A stretch of DNA of 9,030 bases from Octopus sinensis. Its lineage: Eukaryota. Below the pieces are notes generated by a model. That model made no database searches. It had not been told where the DNA came from and saw nothing but the letters and a program-made list of their open reading frames with translations. The translations under genes were made by a program, and so were the position numbers. The stretch is from assembly GCF_006345805.1 (NCBI RefSeq), contig NW_021828179.1:1-9030 (forward strand). Reading direction: 5' to 3'. Every line of letters starts with the position of its first letter. Position 1 is the first letter of the stretch. Below, in pieces: positions 1-9,030 of the stretch.

Positions 1-128
1 ATACATACATATATATGTGTGTGTCTCTGTGTGTATGTAAGTATGTATGCGTTTGTGTTTATATAACATATCACTACATACGCATACATATATGTATTTA
101 TATATATATATGCATATATGTATATATG

Positions 129-181
<53 letters not shown>

Positions 182-385
182 GTATACACATTCATGCAAT
201 CACACATGCATGCATGTATGCATAAATAAATGCTTATATGCATATACATTCATGTATATATTACGTGAGTATGCCTACAATATATCTTATGCATATACAT
301 ACATACACACAAATACGTACATAAGCACATATATATGCATATATATAATGATATATGTATGCATATATATATACATACATATATG

Positions 386-447
<62 letters not shown>

Positions 448-600
448 ATAATATTATAGATATATATATATAATGCAATAGTTACGTGCCACGCGTAATT
501 TACTCCTTTATATATATATATAAGCACATGTTTATCATTTGAATGCTTATACATTCACATATATACGCACAGGTATTCATTCTCACATACATGCATATGT
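1..600. repeat. Compound low-complexity microsatellite tract, (TA)n/(TATG)n/(CATA)n
   Basis: Directly visible TA, TATG and CA repeats; the overlapping Y/I/M/C-rich ORFs are repeat translations. Confidence 0.95.
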
Positions 601-849
601 GTATATCTGAATAATTGCATATAAAAAAAATAGCTGCTTCTTCATTCACCTTTCTGTGAATGTAACTTTGATCATGAGGAATTTGGTGCCCTCAGATGTT
701 TTCCAATAATGAATGGATGTTTCGACGCTGAACTCCCAATCTCTCATGATGGATAGCGAGCAGTGGTCGTCAAATCATTGACCACCTTTTCCTCCTGTTT
801 TCTATCGTAACTGCACTCTTTTGCTCCACTACTAGCAAAACTCTCTCTC

Positions 850-1460
850 TCTGCTGCCCACATCAGCCTGTTATCGCCTGTCTTTGTTTCTCCTCGTGAT
901 ACCCCGCGGGGTGTGAATAACCTCCATACCGTCGGTGCATCTAATCTTCCACAACTCATCTTGACTAGGAAACGTCATGTTTGTTCCCCCTCGAGCCATC
1001 CCTGGCTCATAAGGGCCGGTTTCCCGGTTTCCTTGGCGCATAGGTTCCCCACCTGGACGAGACGCCGGTCCATCGCAGGTGAGCTACAAGATGCAGGAGG
1101 AAAGAGTGAGAGAAAGTTGTGGTGAAAGAGTCAGCAGAAGCTCGCCATTACCTTCAGCCGGAGCCACTTGGAGCTTAGGTGTTTCGCTCATAAACCCACA
1201 CATCACCCGGTCTGAGATTCGAACCTGCGATCCCTCGACCGCGAGTCCGCTGCTCTAACCACTAGGCCATGCGCCTCCACGTGAAACGTCATGCCTGAAA
1301 AACGGTTCCGGATTTGGTATTCTTCTACAGAAAGTCGTGATCGGACAGTAAATTCATTCAATGTTATCTTCTTCGCCTTCTTGGATAAAAGAACGACATG
1401 GTTGTCTAAAGAACTTGGGGTTGCCGCAACCTTTCTTCCATGTCTATCTTCATATCTCAT
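850..1460 (-). pseudogene. Highly decayed non-LTR retrotransposon reverse-transcriptase fragment (R2/Hero-like), split by the SINE at 980-1282
   Basis: After removing the SINE and one TSD copy, the minus strand gives, across frameshifts, VVLLSKKAKKITLNEF..(YCPIT)LSVEEYQI...FS then GMEVIHT and RGETKTGDNRLMW. This resembles, from memory, the RT N-terminal motif order of RLE-type non-LTR elements (lipK...qfRpIsLlsvegKIf ... gcleHt ... kgdlavlwlD). Manual motif recognition only. Confidence 0.4.
980..1282 (-). mobile_element. Full-length tRNA-derived SINE with 11-bp TSD
   Basis: Minus strand begins GTGGAGGCGCATGGCCTAGTGGTTAGAGC (A box, 1259-1269) and has GGTTCGAATC (B box, 1216-1225). It is flanked by the direct repeat GAAACGTCATG at 969-979 and 1283-1293. 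Confidence 0.92.
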
Positions 1461-1482
1461 GACCGGGTCTTTGAGGCAAGTT

Positions 1483-1623
1483 CTCTTTTACTCTTTTATT
1501 TGTTTCATTCATTTTGACTGTGGCCATGCTGGAGCACCGCCTTTAGTCGAGCAAATAGGACTATTAATTATTCTGTCGGTCTCTTTTACCGAACCGCTAA
1601 GTTACGGGGACGTAAACACACCA
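1483..1623 (-). mobile_element. 3' fragment of an abundant octopus-type SINE ('family B')
   Basis: Homologous within the window to 2446-2605 (+) and 4822-4930 (-), sharing TTTGACTG(T/C)GGCCATGCTGGAGCACCGCCTTTAG and a (TCTTTTAC)-type tail. Carries an internal deletion. Confidence 0.85.
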
Positions 1624-1672
1624 TATATTAATATAGATATATATAATATATATATTATATATATATATATAT

Positions 1673-1866
1673 ACTTTATTTAAAGCAGCAGAAAATTCAG
1701 CAAAACCTGTTATTTGAGTTTCCACGTTGCCGTTCATCGGACAGAGTTACTCAGAGTAACAGGTTTTGTTGAATTTCTGCTGCTTTAATAAGCATATTAC
1801 TCTACCACTGGTATTTGCACTCTTTTTTCTACCTTGTTTCACACTCACATTATGCGTTTATTCCGG
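1673..1866. mobile_element. Penelope-like element terminal remnant with inverted partial copy, embedded in (TA)n
   Basis: Inverted arms 1674-1719 and 1749-1792 surround a minimal hammerhead-like core, and TA tracts lie on both sides. An inverted 5'-truncated terminal copy plus a minimal HHR is the known PLE signature. Confidence 0.6.
1707..1744 (-). ncRNA. Minimal type I hammerhead-like motif (degenerate)
   Basis: Minus strand: CUGU-CCGAUGA-ACG(GCAA)CGU-G-GAAA-CUCAAA-UA-ACAG. Stem I is CUGU/ACAG and stem II has a GNRA loop. Stem III is decayed here but intact (CUC-A-GAG-UA-ACAG) in the inverted half-copy at 1750-1762. Confidence 0.55.
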
Positions 1867-1922
<56 letters not shown>

Positions 1923-1950
1923 TATATATATTATACATATATAATATATA
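1867..1950. repeat. (TA)n microsatellite
   Basis: Directly visible. Confidence 0.95.
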
Positions 1951-2136
1951 TCGGGAGAGTTCACGAAAAAAACAAAAACGAAGACAAGGTGGTGTACAAA
2001 ACAAACAGATGTATTAGTATAACGCTCAGGAATAGAAAATGTCTTTTACGTTTCTAGCCTCGCTCTTCTTCAGGAAGGGACACAGGAAAAACAAGAAGAG
2101 ATAAAAATGTGTGTAGTGGCTAACGATCTAATCATG
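1951..2136 (-). mobile_element. Short Penelope-like terminal-repeat remnant containing a minimal HHR-like core at 2043-2077
   Basis: Minus strand: CUUC-CUGAAGA-A-GAGC(GAG)GCUA-GAAA-CG-UA-AAAG, with both conserved boxes and a palindromic ACGU stem III. The module is bounded by TA/TATG microsatellite. Confidence 0.5.
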
Positions 2137-2151
2137 TATGTATATATCTAC

Positions 2152-2605
2152 GTGTGTTTGTCTCACTACCATCGCTTGACAACCGGTATTGGTGCATTAA
2201 GGCGGCGGGCTAGCAGAATCGTTAGCACGTCGGGCGAAATGCTTAGCGGTATTTCGGCTGCCGTTACGTTGTGAGTTCAAATTCCGCCGAGGTCGACTTT
2301 GCCTTTCATCCTTTCGGGGTCGATAAATTAAGTACCAGTTAAGCACTGGGTTCGATGTAACCGACTTAATACCTATGTCTGTCCATGTTTGTCCCATCTA
2401 TGTTCAGCCCCTTGTGGGTAATAAAGAAATAGGTATTGGTGCATTTAAGTGTCCGTAACTTAGCGAATCGGCAAAAGAAACTGACAGCATAAGTACTAGG
2501 CTTAGAAAATACGTCGTGGAGTCGATTTGTTCGACTAAACACCCTTCAAGGCAGTGCTCTAGCATGGCCGCAGTCAAATGACTGAAACAAATAAAAGAAT
2601 AAATG
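2152..2605 (+). mobile_element. 3' half of SINE family B, interrupted by a nested SINE
   Basis: 2152-2198 and 2446-2605 join into one continuous element (...CTTGACAACCGGTATTGGTGCATT-TAAGTGTCCGTAACTTAGCG...GCAGTCAAATGACTGAAACAAATAAAAGA), homologous to the reverse complement of 1483-1623. Confidence 0.8.
2199..2431 (+). mobile_element. Full-length tRNA-derived SINE ('family A') with 14-bp TSD
   Basis: Starts GGCGGCGGGCTAGCAGAATCGTTAGCAC, has a B-box-like GAGTTCAAATTCC at 2273-2285 and an A-rich tail. TSD GGTATTGGTGCATT at 2185-2198 and 2432-2445. Paralogs at 4378-4580 and 7996-8201. Confidence 0.92.
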
Positions 2606-3436
2606 ATTATATATATAAACATATAACACACACAATCATACATATGCATGCATGATATTGAGCATACCCTGAACATTTGTATACACACATGCAGAGCATT
2701 ACATGCACTTGTAGAAATGAATATATTCGTGAGATATACTTACAACAATGTAGAGGATGCTTTCTCCTTATAGCCATGTTATGTAACAAAGTATTTCACC
2801 TACAATCTAGAATTTCTTTTATTCTAAACGAAATAAAAGAACTAACTCTCCATTATTGTTCAGACAATGGATGGAAATGTACCGATATTGTATTCATCTT
2901 CAAGGGGAACAAATGAAATCATAAAATTTTCTAAAGCTCTTTCTAAAACCGCAATTTATAAGTTCCATGCTATCATACATGCCTTCTGACACATACACAT
3001 TATATACAAATATTAAATATAGACACGGGTTGTTTCTATTGTAAACAATAAAACTACTCGTATTTGTAAATAGAAGTTACATATAAGTATTCATATATAA
3101 TGCTACATGATGTCCATGCATTCGCAAGTATATAGAGGTTTGCATTTCACACGTGATTTATGGGAATCCTGAGGTAATGATCTCTGAAGAATCTTAATAA
3201 ATGCGAATCATTTCGGCTTGATACTCACTCCTATATACCGAGTCCTGTTATTTAATTAACCACGGGGCATAATTTTGCAAGAATAAAAATTTATACATAT
3301 TGTGTATACATAATGTATATATTGTTAATATGTCAACCCTTGGCGGACAGACCATTTAATGTAGGGAGAAATAGTTTCAACCAAAAATGGTGATACGACG
3401 TCAATAGCGATATATCAGGTAGCTAAAAGTTTATAT

Positions 3437-3699
3437 GTGGAGGCACGTGGCTTAGTGGTTAAGGTGTCAGCACCATGATCGTAAGATTGTGGTTTCGATT
3501 CCTGGACCAGGCGACTCGTTGTGTTCTTGAGCAAAACACTTCATTTCACGTTGCTCCAGTCCACTCAGCTGGCAAAAATGAGTAACGCTGCGATGGACTG
3601 GCGTCTCGTTCAGCTGGGGAACACATACGCCATAGAAACTGGGAAACCGGGCACATGAGCCTGGGTAGTCTTTAACAGGGCGCCTTTATTTTATTTAAA
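3437..3699 (+). mobile_element. Full-length tRNA-derived SINE with CORE-like central domain and 13-bp TSD
   Basis: A box TGGCTTAGTGG (3448-3458), B-box-like GGTTTCGATTCC (3491-3502), central GTGTTCTTGAGCAAAACACTT...CAGCTGGCAAAAATGAGTA, TTTA-type tail. TSD AAAAGTTTATATG at 3425-3437 and 3700-3712. Confidence 0.92.
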
Positions 3700-3772
3700 A
3701 AAAGTTTATATGGGAAAGCCAATGCTTGTTTATTAAATGTACTTTTGTACGGATTCATACATTCTATAAATC

Positions 3773-3871
3773 AGAAAGCTGATTCGAAGACTACATCACT
3801 GGAACAATAAACCTAGGGGCTCGGGAGGGAGACCAATAAAATAAGTACAAGGCTTAGAGAGAGTAAGTCCT
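3773..3871 (+). repeat. Inverted duplicate of 4888-4997
   Basis: Reverse complement of 4888-4997 apart from one 11-nt deletion and one substitution. Confidence 0.93.
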
Positions 3872-4012
3872 ATTGATAAAATGAATAACACTTAAGCCTG
3901 GTGGCCGCTTGCGTGGACTGTGTTTCTCATGAAATTTTTCCACTGAATAATCATTTGTAAATTCACTGGTTGAAGTCGGCTCAACTATTACTAGTGTGCA
4001 CCGAGACGCATG

Positions 4013-4014
<2 letters not shown>

Positions 4015-4054
<40 letters not shown>

Positions 4055-4070
4055 ATATATTATATATAAT
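4015..4070. repeat. (TA)n microsatellite
   Basis: Directly visible. Confidence 0.95.
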
Positions 4071-4278
4071 AAAACGAAGGGTTTCACACCTGGTAGCTTA
4101 CTGGTAAAGCACGGTCATTTTTACAATTACTTTAGCGAGTTGTATCTATTCATTACCCGATGAGATACATCGCACCACCGGATGCTCCTGAACCAGTTGT
4201 TGAGTGTCCCACACGTGAGGGATCGATGCTAGATGTGTCGAAACAAATTCTCGTATATTCCATCTTCCGTCTTTCATT

Positions 4279-4282
<4 letters not shown>
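4071..4282 (+). mobile_element. Short TA-embedded module with a hammerhead-like core and very long stem II (putative Penelope-like terminus)
   Basis: CCGATGA (4157-4163), then GATACATC (4164-4171) pairing with GATGTGTC (4232-4239), immediately followed by GAAAC (4240-4244) and GTA (4253-4255). Stem I could not be identified. Confidence 0.35.
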
Positions 4283-4346
<64 letters not shown>

Positions 4347-4360
4347 TATATATAATATAT
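4283..4360. repeat. (TA)n microsatellite
   Basis: Directly visible. Confidence 0.95.
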
Positions 4361-4377
4361 GTGTGTTTTGGACAATA

Positions 4378-4580
4378 GCGCGGTGGCTGGCAGAACCGTT
4401 AGCACGCCCTACGAAATGTATAGCAGCATTTCGTCCGCCATTACGTTCTAGGTTCAAATTCCGCCGAGGAGTCGACTTTGCCTGTTCTCCTATCGGGGCC
4501 GATAAAACACGTACCAGGCGATGTAATCGATTTACTTCTTTCCCTGAAATTGTTGGTCTTCTGTCAAAATCTAAAACTAA
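4378..4580 (+). mobile_element. Diverged copy of SINE family A
   Basis: GCTGGCAGAACCGTTAGCACG...GTTCAAATTCCGCCGAGGAGTCGACTTTGCCT aligns with 2209-2305; no clear TSD. Confidence 0.85.
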
Positions 4581-4617
4581 CGTAAACGAGACCAATTTTC
4601 ATTTAAACGAACACATC

Positions 4618-4770
4618 ACAGGCGCGGCTATAAGAGATAAAGAAATTTCCTCCGCAACTGGGTAATCTTGGATCGAAGTTAACCGTGGGTCACCTTGGAC
4701 ATGTGTCTTCTTTCTTTACTCTGTGGAGCACCGAATTTCGTAGTCAGAAACTGTGGGTGTCTGTGTGGCA
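4618..4770 (+). mobile_element. Possible old, decayed SINE 5' portion (tRNA head plus CORE-like start)
   Basis: CACCTTGGACATGTGTCTTCT resembles the CORE-like CACCTTGGGCAAGTGTCTTCT motif recalled from octopus SINE heads; promoter boxes are eroded. Confidence 0.35.
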
Positions 4771-4773
4771 GCA

Positions 4774-4776
<3 letters not shown>

Positions 4777-4819
<43 letters not shown>

Positions 4820-4821
4820 TA
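4777..4821. repeat. (TA)n microsatellite
   Basis: Directly visible. Confidence 0.95.
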
Positions 4822-4930
4822 TTCTTTTACATCTCATTTGACTGCGGCCATGCTGGAGCACCGCCTTTAGTTGAAGAAATCGACATCAGGACTTACTCTC
4901 TCTAAGCCTTGTACTTATTTTATCGGTCTC
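4822..4930 (-). mobile_element. 3' fragment of SINE family B
   Basis: TCATTTGACTGCGGCCATGCTGGAGCACCGCCTTTAG...GTACTTATTTTATCGGTCTC is homologous to 1483-1623 and 2470-2600. Confidence 0.88.
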
Positions 4931-4945
4931 CCTCCCGAGCCCCTA

Positions 4946-5098
4946 GGTTTATTGTTCCAGTGATGGATTGGATCTGTAGTCTTCGAATCAGCTTTCTCCT
5001 TTCTGGTTTTGAGGTGCCTAATTTCTCAAGATTTGTATTTAGGTAGTGCGTTACATATTCTCAGCGCCCCATTAATTACAGGTATCACATTTGGAACT
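4946..5098 (-). pseudogene. C-terminal fragment of a restriction-like-endonuclease non-LTR retrotransposon ORF (R4/Dong-like)
   Basis: With one 1-nt frameshift the minus strand reads VIPVINGAL/YVTHYLNTNLEKLGTSKPERRKLIRRLQIQSITGTI. This matches the generic 'ipviiGalG.....l..lg......i..lQ...l.gt..i' tail of RLE elements. Confidence 0.6.
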
Positions 5099-5102
5099 TG
5101 AG

Positions 5103-5776
5103 ATGCATGCATGTATGCATGTATGTATGTATGTATGTATGTATGTATATATGTATGTATGTATGTATGCATGCATGCATGCATGTATGTATGTATGTAT
5201 GTATGTATGTATGCATGCATGCATGCATGTATGTATGTATGTATGTATGCATGTATGTATGTATGTATGTATGTATGTATGTATGTATGTATGTATGTAT
5301 GTATGCATGCATGTATGCATGTATGTATGCATGTATGTATGTATGTATGTATGCATGCATGTATGTATGTATGTATGTATGTTTGTTTGTATGTATGTAT
5401 GTATGTATGCATGTATGTATGTATGTATGTATGTATGTATTTTGTATGTATGTATGTATGTATGTATGCATGTATGTATGTATGTATGCATGCATGTATG
5501 TATGTATGTATGTATGTTTGTTTGTATGTATGTATGTATGCATGTATGTATGTATGTATGTATGTATGTATGTTTGTATGTATGTATGTATGTATGTATG
5601 CATGTATGTATGTATGTATGCATGCATGTATGTATGTATGTATGTATGTTTGTTTGTATGTATGTATGTATGTATGCATGCATGCATGTATGTATGTATG
5701 TATGTATGTATGTATGATGTATGTATGTATGTTGTATGTATGTATGTATGTATGTATGTATGTATGTTTGTATGTA
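5103..5776. repeat. ~670-bp (TATG)n tetranucleotide array with CATG/TTTG variants
   Basis: Directly visible; explains all six 208-294 aa ORFs, since the unit encodes no stop codon. Confidence 0.98.
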
Positions 5777-6167
5777 CCAATGCTTAGGCATGATTGTACG
5801 AATGCATATATGTTGTAGGATACTGTTTTGTACCCTGCCAACCGAACTTTTGTAGATAAGGGTACATATTCAAAGATAAGGTTATACGCTATGTGACGTC
5901 TCATACACATTACCTGTGTTTACAAACACAGGTAAGACCGAATACATTAGTAACCTTGGTTATTCTCCTTTCTCTCCATCTTTGTTTAACTGTCTCTTAG
6001 TTTGTCTGTCTGTATCTCACTTGTATACAGAGCGTATCAAATAGAACTTGGTTAATTAATTAAGGTGCGTGCATGAGTAACCTGGACTAGACAGATTCCA
6101 AATTCCAGGTGATTCAACTGATCAGTAGAGCGGTCAATACCGATTTCAACCCTTGGAAAGTTCCTGG

Positions 6168-6706
<539 letters not shown>

Positions 6707-6924
6707 GAAATTACGCCACCCTCTCTCTGCACGCTGTGCACCAATTCCAGTCCATTTTGCTGCTGCTACATATTCCAGAATTCCTTTGCCAATATCGTCA
6801 GCCGCATGTCTGCATTGTCTAGAATCTGAGATACGTGAACCGATCTGAATGGAGAATCTCTACGGTGGAAGTAATTCTCGCAGGTATGCAACCAGCTGAG
6901 GCAAATTCGAAGACAACGGTTGGA

Positions 6925-7040
6925 AACAACAACAACCACTGTCGACAACAATAACAACGACAACAGCAAGAACTGCGGCAGCAGCAGCAGCAGCAGCAAC
7001 AACAACAACGATAACGAGAAGAACATTAGTGGCAACAACA
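6925..7040. repeat. Imperfect (CAA)/(CAG)n trinucleotide tract
   Basis: Directly visible. Confidence 0.85.
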
Positions 7041-7113
7041 AGGTTTATCTGAAACAACAGCAGAAGAAAGCCGTGTTGAAATCAAACGGCCATCATATAT
7101 CTCTTCGCCCGTT

Positions 7114-7114
7114 G

Positions 7115-7191
<77 letters not shown>

Positions 7192-7326
7192 GAATTATGA
7201 TAATAATGATGATGATGAGGATGATGGTGATGAGGTTGCTGACGACGATTATGATGATGAGAAACAAGACTGATACTACTGCTAATAATGATGATAATAA
7301 TAACAATAATGATAATAATAATAATA
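7114..7326. repeat. (TAA)n grading into (TGA)n trinucleotide tract
   Basis: Directly visible; source of the poly-N/D/I/Y ORFs. Confidence 0.96.
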
Positions 7327-7339
7327 TATGAATACATTA

Positions 7340-7422
7340 ATACATGTATACATACACACAATACACACACTCACACACGCGCATACACACATTCACACTT
7401 ACGTTTCTGTGTGTGTGTGTGT

Positions 7423-7488
<66 letters not shown>

Positions 7489-7535
7489 TATATATATGTA
7501 TATGTATATGTATGTATTATGTATGTATACACACA
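7340..7535. repeat. (CA)n/(TG)n/(TA)n/(TATG)n compound microsatellite
   Basis: Directly visible. Confidence 0.93.
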
Positions 7536-7980
7536 ACCCTTTTCCTTCAGTCTGTCCCACAGACCAGACGCATTCCTATCTGTCTCCTCGTCTATCTTTT
7601 CTCTTGTCAAAGAATATTTCCCCACCGTTCGCTACATTACCTCATCTGGCCTGACGGCCCTCCATGTTTGTTTTCGTTTGGTTTGTTGTATGTCTGTCTC
7701 CATTATCCTGCTTTTGTTACCGACCTCGACCCTCCGCAAAATACCAAATTTTACTCTTGGTTCGCGGGAGCAACTGTCTTTCGAAGCCTCATAATATCGT
7801 CAACTGCTCAAAATGTGGAGTAGATGAACAGCCGACAACTGAAGAAGGGTCGTCCGTCATGTTACTTGTCTTGTTTTCTATTTGTTTCTCTCGTTGTTCG
7901 CATACTCAAGTTTGACTTCGTATCTCCTGTTGTTTTCATATTTCATGTGGTTTTACGTTTTGTGACGTCCTGTACCCGTA
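7536..7980 (+). mobile_element. Possible decayed non-autonomous Penelope-like element
   Basis: The frame at 7772-7819 encodes NCLSKPHNIVNCSKCG, similar to the C.s.nviY.i.C..Cg entry to PLE GIY-YIG endonucleases. It is followed by GACAA-CTGAAGA...TTGTC (7834-7870), an HHR-like stem I plus first box but no GAAA box. Flanked by TA microsatellite. Confidence 0.35.
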
Positions 7981-7995
7981 TATGTATATATATAT

Positions 7996-8201
7996 ATTTC
8001 TTTACTACCCACAAGAAGCTAAACACAGAGGAGACAAACAAGGACAGACAAAGGGATCGACCCCAGTGCGTAACTGGTACTTCATTTATCGACCCCGGAA
8101 GGATGAAAGGCTAAGCCGACCTCGGCGGAATTTGAACTCAGAACGTAACGGCAGACGAAATACGGCAACGCATTTCGCCCAGCGTGCTAACGTTTCTGCC
8201 A
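7996..8201 (-). mobile_element. SINE family A copy lacking its first ~10 nt
   Basis: Reverse complement aligns to 2211-2431 (TGGCAGAAACGTTAGCACG...GAGTTCAAATTCCGCCGAGGTCG...CTTGTGGGTAGTAAAGAAAT). Confidence 0.9.
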
Positions 8202-8334
8202 TTTCAATATGGCTAACCCCTAAGGGTGGATGCTACTGTAGTTTTTAGCCCCAGGAGGACACACTCCTCCAGCTGGCCATAGACACACTTTCTGTGTCCT
8301 GTCAGTATTTGCAAAGGGAATCCCTACCCGTCTT

Positions 8335-8405
8335 CAACTTATGATAACACACGGACTCGAGTTTCGAGGTATTGACCTCTCGTCAGCGTGTGACAATCAT
8401 AGTTG
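8335..8405 (-). ncRNA. Type I hammerhead ribozyme (core 8348-8392, extended stem I)
   Basis: 5'-CAACU AUGAU UGU CACACG CUGACGA GAGGU(CAAU)ACCUC GAAA CUCGAG UC^CGUGUG UU AUCAU A AGUUG-3'. All conserved core nucleotides are present; GUC cleavage is predicted between 8354 and 8353. Confidence 0.95.
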
Positions 8406-8699
8406 TCGCCAGAATTAGATTTCCTTCACAAATACTTATACTTTTTCCACAGCGCCCACTGTCGCTGATATTGAAAAAGTGAAATCAAACAATGATAAAT
8501 ATCAAAGTGAGTTATATACAGTAGCGTAACACATCGTGACGTATTTTTGCCATTTCAATATGGCTAACCCCTAAGGGTGGATGCTACTGTAGTTTTTAGC
8601 CAGGAGGACACACCCTCCAGCTGGCCCTAGACACACTTTCTCTGTGTCCTGTCAGTATTTGCAAAGGGAATTCATCCTTCCCGTCTTCAACTTATGATA

Positions 8700-8744
8700 C
8701 ACACGGACTCGAGTTTCGAGGTATTGACCTCTCGTCAGCGTGTG
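8700..8744 (-). ncRNA. Type I hammerhead ribozyme (second copy; distal stem I truncated by (AAT)n)
   Basis: 45-nt core identical to 8348-8392; predicted cleavage between 8706 and 8705. Confidence 0.93.
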
Positions 8745-8746
8745 AC

Positions 8747-8768
8747 AATAATAATAATAATAATGATA
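8747..8768. repeat. (AAT)n microsatellite
   Basis: Directly visible. Confidence 0.9.
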
Positions 8769-8894
8769 AAGAGTAAATGAAAGAATATAATTTTCTTAAA
8801 AAGCAATTCTTTAAATGACAAGGAAAATGGAGAAAGTAAGAAAATGGTGTGGTTATAAGACAGCGAATAGAGTACGCTTGGAATGAGTGATGTG

Positions 8895-9000
8895 GAGGGA
8901 CAGAGAGGCAGAGAGAAAGAGAGAGAGAGAGAGAGAGAGGAGGGGAGGAAGATAATGGGAATATAGTGAGAGGAGGAATGATTGTGTGTGGAGAGAGGAG
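8895..9000. repeat. GA-rich/(GA)n polypurine tract
   Basis: Directly visible. Confidence 0.85.
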
Positions 9001-9030
9001 CAAAGTAAATAAAAATGAGTTAGAAATGAT

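Follow-up and report, generated by a model that had tools for sequence, protein, structure and literature searches.

A young hammerhead retrozyme family of Octopus sinensis with the insertion signature of Penelope-like elements

The window analysed here, 9,030 nucleotides of Octopus sinensis DNA that form an entire small contig from base 1 to the contig end (assembly GCF_006345805.1, contig NW_021828179.1, positions 1 to 9,030 of the forward strand), carries one copy of a young retrozyme family, a non-coding tandem repeat in which every unit contains a type I hammerhead ribozyme motif. We consider it moderately likely that this retrozyme is copied by the reverse transcriptase (RT) and GIY-YIG endonuclease of a Penelope-like element (PLE), probably from a circular RNA of 352 nt. 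The case is built on the ends, arms and targets of insertions throughout the genome, to which the window copy provided the entry point. Unit positions are numbered from the predicted ribozyme cut site, 8705 being unit position 1, and the features of the window element are as follows.

8197..8749, minus strand: retrozyme insertion of about 1.6 units, one-armed, GC 44.5%
8197..8749, minus strand: order of parts within the insertion, unit ~305-352, then 1-352, then 1-158/162
8700..8744, minus strand: type I hammerhead 1 (RF00163), predicted cut between 8706 and 8705
8348..8392, minus strand: type I hammerhead 2 (RF00163), identical to hammerhead 1, predicted cut between 8354 and 8353
8354..8705, minus strand: 352-nt unit bounded by the two predicted cut sites, without an ORF and strongly self-paired
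8536, minus strand: position of the short (S) 3´ end of other family copies, unit position 170, putative first RT start
8488..8492, minus strand: position of the long (L, tailed) 3´ end of other copies, unit 214-218, putative second RT start
8193..8201, minus strand: junction where the truncated 3´ end of the retrozyme meets a SINE in a microhomology of 5 exact nt, or of 9 nt if one mismatch is allowed
7997..8201, minus strand: SINE-like repeat, very abundant and separate from the retrozyme, 90% identical to an inverted copy at 2213-2356
8750..8765, no strand assigned: (ATT)n/(TAA)n microsatellite at the 5´ junction of the retrozyme, with about 4 nt of microhomology

The initial annotation of this DNA, made from the sequence alone, had described two identical minus-strand type I hammerheads delimiting a 352-nt unit. 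Both are where it placed them: the full RF00163 (Hammerhead_1) model matches at 8744-8700 and 8392-8348 with 32.2 bits and an E value of 5.9e-05, slightly missing the gathering score of 34, and C17 of the two motifs falls at 8706 and 8354, so that the predicted cut sites enclose a unit running from 8705 to 8354. The annotation had also counted roughly six differences between the repeated parts, none in the ribozyme, and this count stands, with 2 substitutions and about 5-6 indels distinguishing the ~200-nt repeated parts, all outside the 45-nt core. Since the chance that 7 events miss 45 of 202 nt is 0.17, the untouched core is no evidence of selection; several of the differences are indels and may be assembly errors.

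The window copy is an atypical one-armed insertion fused to the SINE. Its 3´ end (unit 158-162) stops about 10 nt short of the S position and lies off both sites at which other copies end, and the SINE at the junction lacks its own first ~10 nt. On the simplest reading, a deletion at a microhomology probably removed the original 3´ end after insertion and fused the retrozyme to the SINE; the proposal that the 1.6-mer is what rolling reverse transcription left behind was thus too simple, as the copy is not a clean product of that kind. The SINE-like repeat occurs three times in the window (2202-2430, 4378-4560 and 7997-8201), and a MITE-like inverted-repeat element of about 130 nt was noted by eye between TA tracts at 1670-1800. 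The remaining Rfam matches in the window were dismissed as microsatellite artefacts, and no tRNA gene was found in it.

Each window hammerhead consists of a helix I of 6 bp, the core CUGACGA, a helix II of 5 bp, GAAA and a helix III of 2 bp whose UCGA loop lies within an 8-nt palindrome. A 2-bp helix III with a tetraloop matches the invertebrate motifs described in the accessible text of PMC7229834, and dimeric action of such motifs has been published (PMC4209133). The octamer is a perfect palindrome in 248 of the 261 helix III regions in the fetched loci, with several different sequences. Co-folding of two copies is predicted to give the active double-hammerhead arrangement at -33.9 kcal/mol, compared with -14.5 kcal/mol for each misfolded single copy, and in the natural 1.6-mer the active hammerhead fold lies about 13 kcal/mol above the predicted minimum, with the single and double forms within 1 kcal/mol of each other. 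The monomer folds more stably than shuffled sequences (z -5.7 as a linear molecule; -5.5 and -6.1 as a circle). Two-sided changes were seen in 9 of 45 consensus pairs among 22 diverse copies, helices I and II included, a count that is inflated by the relatedness of the copies. The lower variation of the ribozyme (0.2-0.5%) relative to the rest of the unit (1.2-5.3%) was set aside as biased, because most loci had been chosen by an exact match to the core.

The family is dispersed and not due to chance, since a 33-nt core has 654 exact matches genome-wide and its reversed control has 0; a looser motif has 2,667. The unit is therefore not the single-copy local duplication that the initial annotation had named as an alternative, and its assignment to the non-LTR retrozymes, as a dispersed, non-coding and multimeric type I hammerhead repeat, agrees with the number of exact cores and with the lack of an ORF both in the 352-nt unit and inside any of 61 insertions. 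A search with the unit returned 951 candidates, and the best 40 of these 951, which were scored, include full-length matches at 91-97%. The 86 full units measured are 342-358 nt long (mode 353), with a mean identity of 97.9% between loci, which indicates a young family, and of 98.2% within a locus. GC content of the unit is 42%.

Related subfamilies are older. Subfamily B has a 353-nt unit that is about 70% identical over its whole length, further older subfamilies exist, and subfamilies at 70% identity retain the 352-353 nt unit and both 3´ ends, and in them the sequences on either side of the cut site still pair with each other. Among 28 distinct subfamily B cores listed and counted by eye, CUGANGA is found in 5 and CCGAAGA in 13; CCGAAGA is the commonest (L081-L110), comes with a weakened helix II and is common to many copies. 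A master with this variant core appears to have amplified, and because subfamily B spread with it, we suggest that cleavage may be dispensable. In a more distant subfamily (L182, L203 and L206; 67-74% identity) the 3´ half with the hammerhead is shared and the body seems to be a different and shorter one. In a comparison with window 8100-8850, contigs under three other organism labels (runs X5, X6 and X17) match the unit at 97-99% identity, and to judge by these sequences the young family occurs beyond one labelled species. Twenty sequencing runs under eight organism labels, none of them recorded as RNA, contain 35-53% of the sampled words, and all four runs examined as contigs have contigs matching the unit. 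In runs X5 and X6, which we guessed to be RNA, 383-nt contigs cover the unit, fitting a circle, a tandem transcript or DNA alike; joints going back 351-352 nt in runs X6 and X1 are likewise a pattern that all three would give.

Insertion ends were mapped in all 59 loci behind the first 100 of the 654 core matches, which gave 61 insertions and 92 3´ ends. Two sites account for nearly all of these ends: 52 are S ends (unit 170-173), 34 are L ends (214-218) and 6 lie elsewhere. The true S end is at about 170, the remainder of the 170-173 range being overlap with the TA target, and a separate pattern search found 313 exact junctions of an S end with TA. The S and L ends are thus ~45 nt apart, giving the retrozyme a tail of 42-48 nt. 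The initial annotation had expected dispersed multimers with permuted endpoints; the dispersal and the multimers are there and the 5´ ends do vary among copies, but the 3´ ends are fixed at the two internal sites in 86 of 92 cases. Between the flanks there is only unit sequence, with no LTR-flanked central region, and arms reach 7-10 units (~10 in L080), most being shorter than 2 units.

Roughly half of the insertions (31/61) are two-armed, with the arms head-to-head and the 3´ ends outward, and 30/61 are one-armed. One S and one L end were found in 27 of the 31 two-armed insertions, S+S or L+L in 0, and one end was unresolved in the other 4; two of the 27, both at locus L059, have a junction in common and could stem from a single event. 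An S end was found in 24/30 of the one-armed insertions and an L end in 4/30. The same rule was seen in a second sample of 40 older-subfamily loci (C1 matches of the looser motif, none from the main sample; 43 groups), with S+L in 13 of 17 two-armed cases and S+S or L+L in 0. TA tracts border 47 of the 61 insertions on both flanks, compared with a 4.8% background, and eight two-armed insertions with non-TA targets have target duplications of 12-14 bp; in the second sample no target duplication was found in 3 of 13 S+L cases. Six one-armed insertions (L030, L031, L038, L051, L063 and L066) share a 5´ end at unit 145, where ATAT matches the TA target, a recurrent joining by microhomology. A conserved hairpin at the S site was not found across the subfamilies.

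These features are those of PLEs. As described in the accessible text of two studies, PLEs leave an inverted 5´-truncated copy, a tail of 30-40 bp at one end and a (TA)n bias (Craig et al., 2021, PMC8557442), and the same signature with duplications of 8-10 bp (Arkhipova et al., 2013, PMC3846280). In an in vitro study, the length of the PLE tail corresponds to the spacing of two internal RT starts, cleavage and extension take place on both strands of the target, the protein is a predicted dimer, and completion of second-strand integration was left unvalidated (Frangieh et al., 2024, PMC11167929). On the match of the S and L ends, the one-end tail, the inverted arms and the TA targets to such insertions, we assign the PLE signature to the retrozyme and regard its mobilisation by PLEs as very probable, which supports the link to Penelope-like machinery drawn in the initial annotation.

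The variant bases of the unit bear on which RNA is copied. At polymorphic site 161 both arms have the same base in 40 of 40 two-armed insertions (29 A/A and 11 T/T, T being the minor base), and arms agree at other polymorphic sites in 37/39, 17/18 and 20/23 cases; adjacent units agree at site 161 in 128/128. Because the arms share variant bases, both arms of an insertion are taken to be fed by one RNA variant. Arm length was assessed in the 47 S arms of C1 and of C2 up to 182 Mb, which had been selected solely by their 3´ end. Of the 46 that could be measured, 36 continue beyond the cut site, 29 are longer than one unit and 2 end at a cut site. Copying through the ribozyme cut site leaves no scar, the junction being exact in 105 of 115 instances and having small changes in the other 10. 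Since 36 of the 46 arms pass the cut site, the usual template is not a cut linear monomer; the arm data are compatible with a circle and with an uncut multimer alike. A stall after one turn had been considered as proof of a circle, given that S arms stop at unit 104-142 in 7/20 second passes and 3/46 first passes (p 0.006), but the argument was rejected as position-dependent because L arms stop in that region on both passes.

We searched the genome for a possible partner. A GIY-YIG search gave 5,029 candidates, and among the best 150 of the 5,029, which were scored, are intact frames of 781 aa and 775 aa that combine an RT with a C-terminal GIY-YIG domain, intact proteins being encoded for example at L145:1921-4263 and at L148:2245-4569 (minus strand); copies of the young PLE family with the 781-aa frame, which we take to be Neptune-like from the cysteine motif before the nuclease rather than from a tree, are 96-99% identical. 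At 30 loci the family has TA targets, and each of its 3 two-armed insertions has a tail on exactly one arm; the tail is ~31-39 nt long, compared with 42-48 nt for the retrozyme. The unit showed no similarity to 15 PLE 3´ regions, a sample from ~5,000 candidates (30 comparisons; best z 3.0, the rest at most 1.5). PLE coding matches are present in 11 of 150 retrozyme loci and 10 of 59 young-family loci. Retrozyme insertions often have a PLE copy as neighbour in or alongside one TA tract (L032, L033, L043, L047, L056 and L067), a proximity consistent with shared insertion hot spots. Retrozyme-PLE chimeras at L032 and L067 were rejected as proof of a partner because in neither is the remainder of the PLE present and in one most of a retrozyme arm is missing; a nested insertion into TA tracts used by both elements, followed by deletion, accounts for them.

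Some features of the PLEs were noted in passing. Many copies of the young PLE family (L145:4400-5240; L161-L180) measure only 390-420 nt and begin within a zone of 30 nt; the sample was skewed towards matches of 361 nt or more. This zone lies directly downstream of a TATA-like box that itself follows repeated boxes, presumably CCAAT- and CRE-like, which suggests that a short transcript from an internal promoter of the PLE was itself retrotransposed. A minimal hammerhead-like motif was recognised by eye in at least two PLE families (L145:5145-5180; 3´ regions of L033 and L118), with a core of UUGAUAA or UUGAAAA rather than CUGANGA and with helix II, GAAA and the palindromic helix III kept, and the PLE family at L114 has a canonical hammerhead core.

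One alternative concerns the form of the template. The same PLE machinery might copy a linear, uncut multimeric or read-through transcript, with a ribozyme that is slow or dispensable and any circles by-products. In the accessible part of the in vitro study, the main substrate of the PLE RT is uncut, unprocessed RNA, and ribozyme mutants left insertion unreduced (PMC11167929); only one of nine Xenopus retrozyme dimers was cleaved according to the available text of a preprint (10.64898/2026.07.22.740005). The amplification of subfamily B with its variant core, the prediction that the active fold is not the minimum and the existence of long source arrays such as that at L080 point the same way. 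A daughter copied from a linear template would never be longer than its parent, however, so that arrays should shrink, yet arms of 7-10 units occur in a family in which most are below 2 units; unit length and end-to-end pairing have been kept over 30% divergence, and comparable mussel units are described as mostly circles (PMC7229834). As linear templates would only shorten arrays and as these two properties are retained across subfamilies, we favour the circle: granted mobilisation by PLEs, a circular template seems rather probable, and we judge the linear transcript unlikely, though deserving of serious attention.

Three further readings fare less well. Local DNA amplification by unequal crossover of an orphan PLE pseudo-LTR, one of the scenarios in the available text of the same preprint (10.64898/2026.07.22.740005), would suit the homogeneity of units within an arm and the two L059 insertions with their identical junction, but it sits badly with hundreds of dispersed young loci that each have their own 5´ breakpoint and target, with the different overlaps of the 29 of 46 arms that exceed one unit, and with within-locus identity close to that between loci, and we hold it to be very improbable. 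The unit might instead be the terminal repeat of a coding PLE outside our sample and the non-coding copies its truncated products. About 180 loci of the family group were covered, compared with 2,667 motif matches, and the insertions at L032 and L067 abut PLE coding sequence, which leaves this reading some room; against it, what lies upstream of each hammerhead is the previous unit and not the end of an ORF, the ATG frames of a natural 4-unit array reach 38 codons at most, none of 50 GIY-YIG loci has the unit as a terminal repeat (two unit copies there are separate insertions), and L032 and L067 look like deletions. As the unit is not such a repeat in any of the 61 insertions either, the alternative raised in the initial annotation is in our view quite improbable. 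LINEs too give 5´ truncation, microhomology joins and microsatellite targets, all seen in the retrozyme, and the window copy adjoins a SINE, so that a SINE-like mobilisation by LINEs through ordinary target-primed reverse transcription with twin priming may be entertained. LINE twin priming leaves outer ends of which one is fixed and one variable, whereas the inverted retrozyme insertions have both outer ends at fixed internal sites under the one-S-one-L rule, and a single 3´ end with a tail of poly(A) or simple repeats is missing; we give a LINE origin hardly any weight.

Returning to copying of the retrozyme by a PLE, we propose the following course of events. A multimeric transcript would be cut by its hammerheads, probably with the help of base pairing between the palindromes of two helix III regions; the monomer would then be circularised by a host ligase. 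The PLE protein, to judge from the insertion footprint, would make a staggered cut of ~12-13 nt in AT-rich DNA, mostly (TA)n. RT would then begin at an internal position of the RNA, either unit 170 (S) or unit 214-218 (L), where the DNA ends are observed, with one target strand using S and the other L on the same RNA variant. Copying, which demonstrably crosses the cut site scarlessly and can extend over as many as 7-10 units, would stop at the variable 5´ ends that are seen among copies, and two cDNAs would join head-to-head or a single arm would join the target by microhomology. The specific model of a dimeric PLE RT that acts on one small circular ribozyme RNA from two fixed internal starts, one per cut strand, and produces two head-to-head multimeric arms by rolling is tentative, and we put it a little short of an even chance.

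With a young family of high copy number whose junctions show PLE signatures at base level, the question of the mobiliser becomes directly testable, as one small RNA, two predicted starts and intact candidate proteins are available from the same genome. The one-S-one-L rule and the variant shared by both arms constrain the second-strand integration of PLEs. If the dimeric model on a circle is true, these insertions would, through their footprints, be direct evidence for the circles of animal retrozymes as the transposition intermediate, PLEs would mobilise retrozymes in trans through RNA structure without sequence kinship, and the 352-nt unit would be a defined substrate for the biochemistry of PLE integration. 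No host function of the retrozyme is implied.

From the newt repeats onwards, animal retrozymes have been described as hammerhead satellites. The class itself is established, molluscs included, and its link to PLEs was proposed in 2020 and argued in a 2026 preprint. In the accessible text of the 2020 study, the non-LTR retrozymes of the mussel Mytilus galloprovincialis have units of 350-390 bp, the nearest in size to the octopus unit, PLEs are named as a strong candidate mobiliser and the choice of "LINEs or PLEs" is left open (Cervera and de la Peña, 2020, PMC7229834), an account repeated in a review (PMC7761336). As here, metazoan non-LTR retrozymes are described there as non-coding tandem units of 150-450 bp with one type I hammerhead each and GC below 50%, dispersed as dimers to multimers, with self-paired RNA and duplications of more than 4 bp; fixed internal 3´ ends, a tail, inverted arms and TA targeting, known here from DNA alone, are not reported in that text. 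Its main text has no mention of octopus or cephalopods, which its supplement may list, and the main text of a 2026 Octopus vulgaris repeat annotation has no mention of hammerhead, ribozyme or retrozyme. Subscription papers, Repbase/Dfam and some supplements apart, we found neither a cephalopod retrozyme nor a junction analysis of retrozyme tails or inverted arms in the literature.

The preprint reaches the same conclusion, that PLEs mobilise retrozymes, presenting retrozymes as non-autonomous PLE derivatives on the basis of co-occurrence in 35 genomes and of pseudo-LTR homology in Xenopus (Li, Clavereau and Pollet, 10.64898/2026.07.22.740005). Its available text states the mechanism to be unresolved, describes a sample without molluscs and has no use of "tail" or "initiation". 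The evidence given here is of a different kind, namely insertion junctions without homology to local PLE ends, in place of co-occurrence and homology.

Plant LTR retrozymes have type III hammerheads in LTRs, a unique central region and a 4-bp duplication; with its type I motif, pure tandem structure and duplications of 12-14 bp the octopus family is not one of them. Nor is it an autonomous EN+ PLE, an RT/GIY-YIG ORF being absent from the unit and from the 61 insertions. The non-autonomous Chlamys PLEs (MRC1 of Chlamydomonas, PMC8557442) are, like the retrozyme, non-coding PLE passengers with multicopy head-to-tail insertions; as described in the accessible text of that study they resemble their autonomous partners at the 3´ ends and belong to a clade without canonical hammerheads, whereas the retrozyme has a hammerhead and showed no similarity to the 15 PLE 3´ regions compared. 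With EN+ PLEs as published it shares partial tandems, an inverted 5´-truncated arm, a one-end tail, AT-rich or (TA)n targets, duplications of ~8-14 bp and a type I hammerhead upstream of the 3´ end. It differs from them in having no ORF, a canonical instead of a minimal hammerhead and a tail of 42-48 nt rather than the published 30-40 bp, and in that the entire element is one repeating unit.
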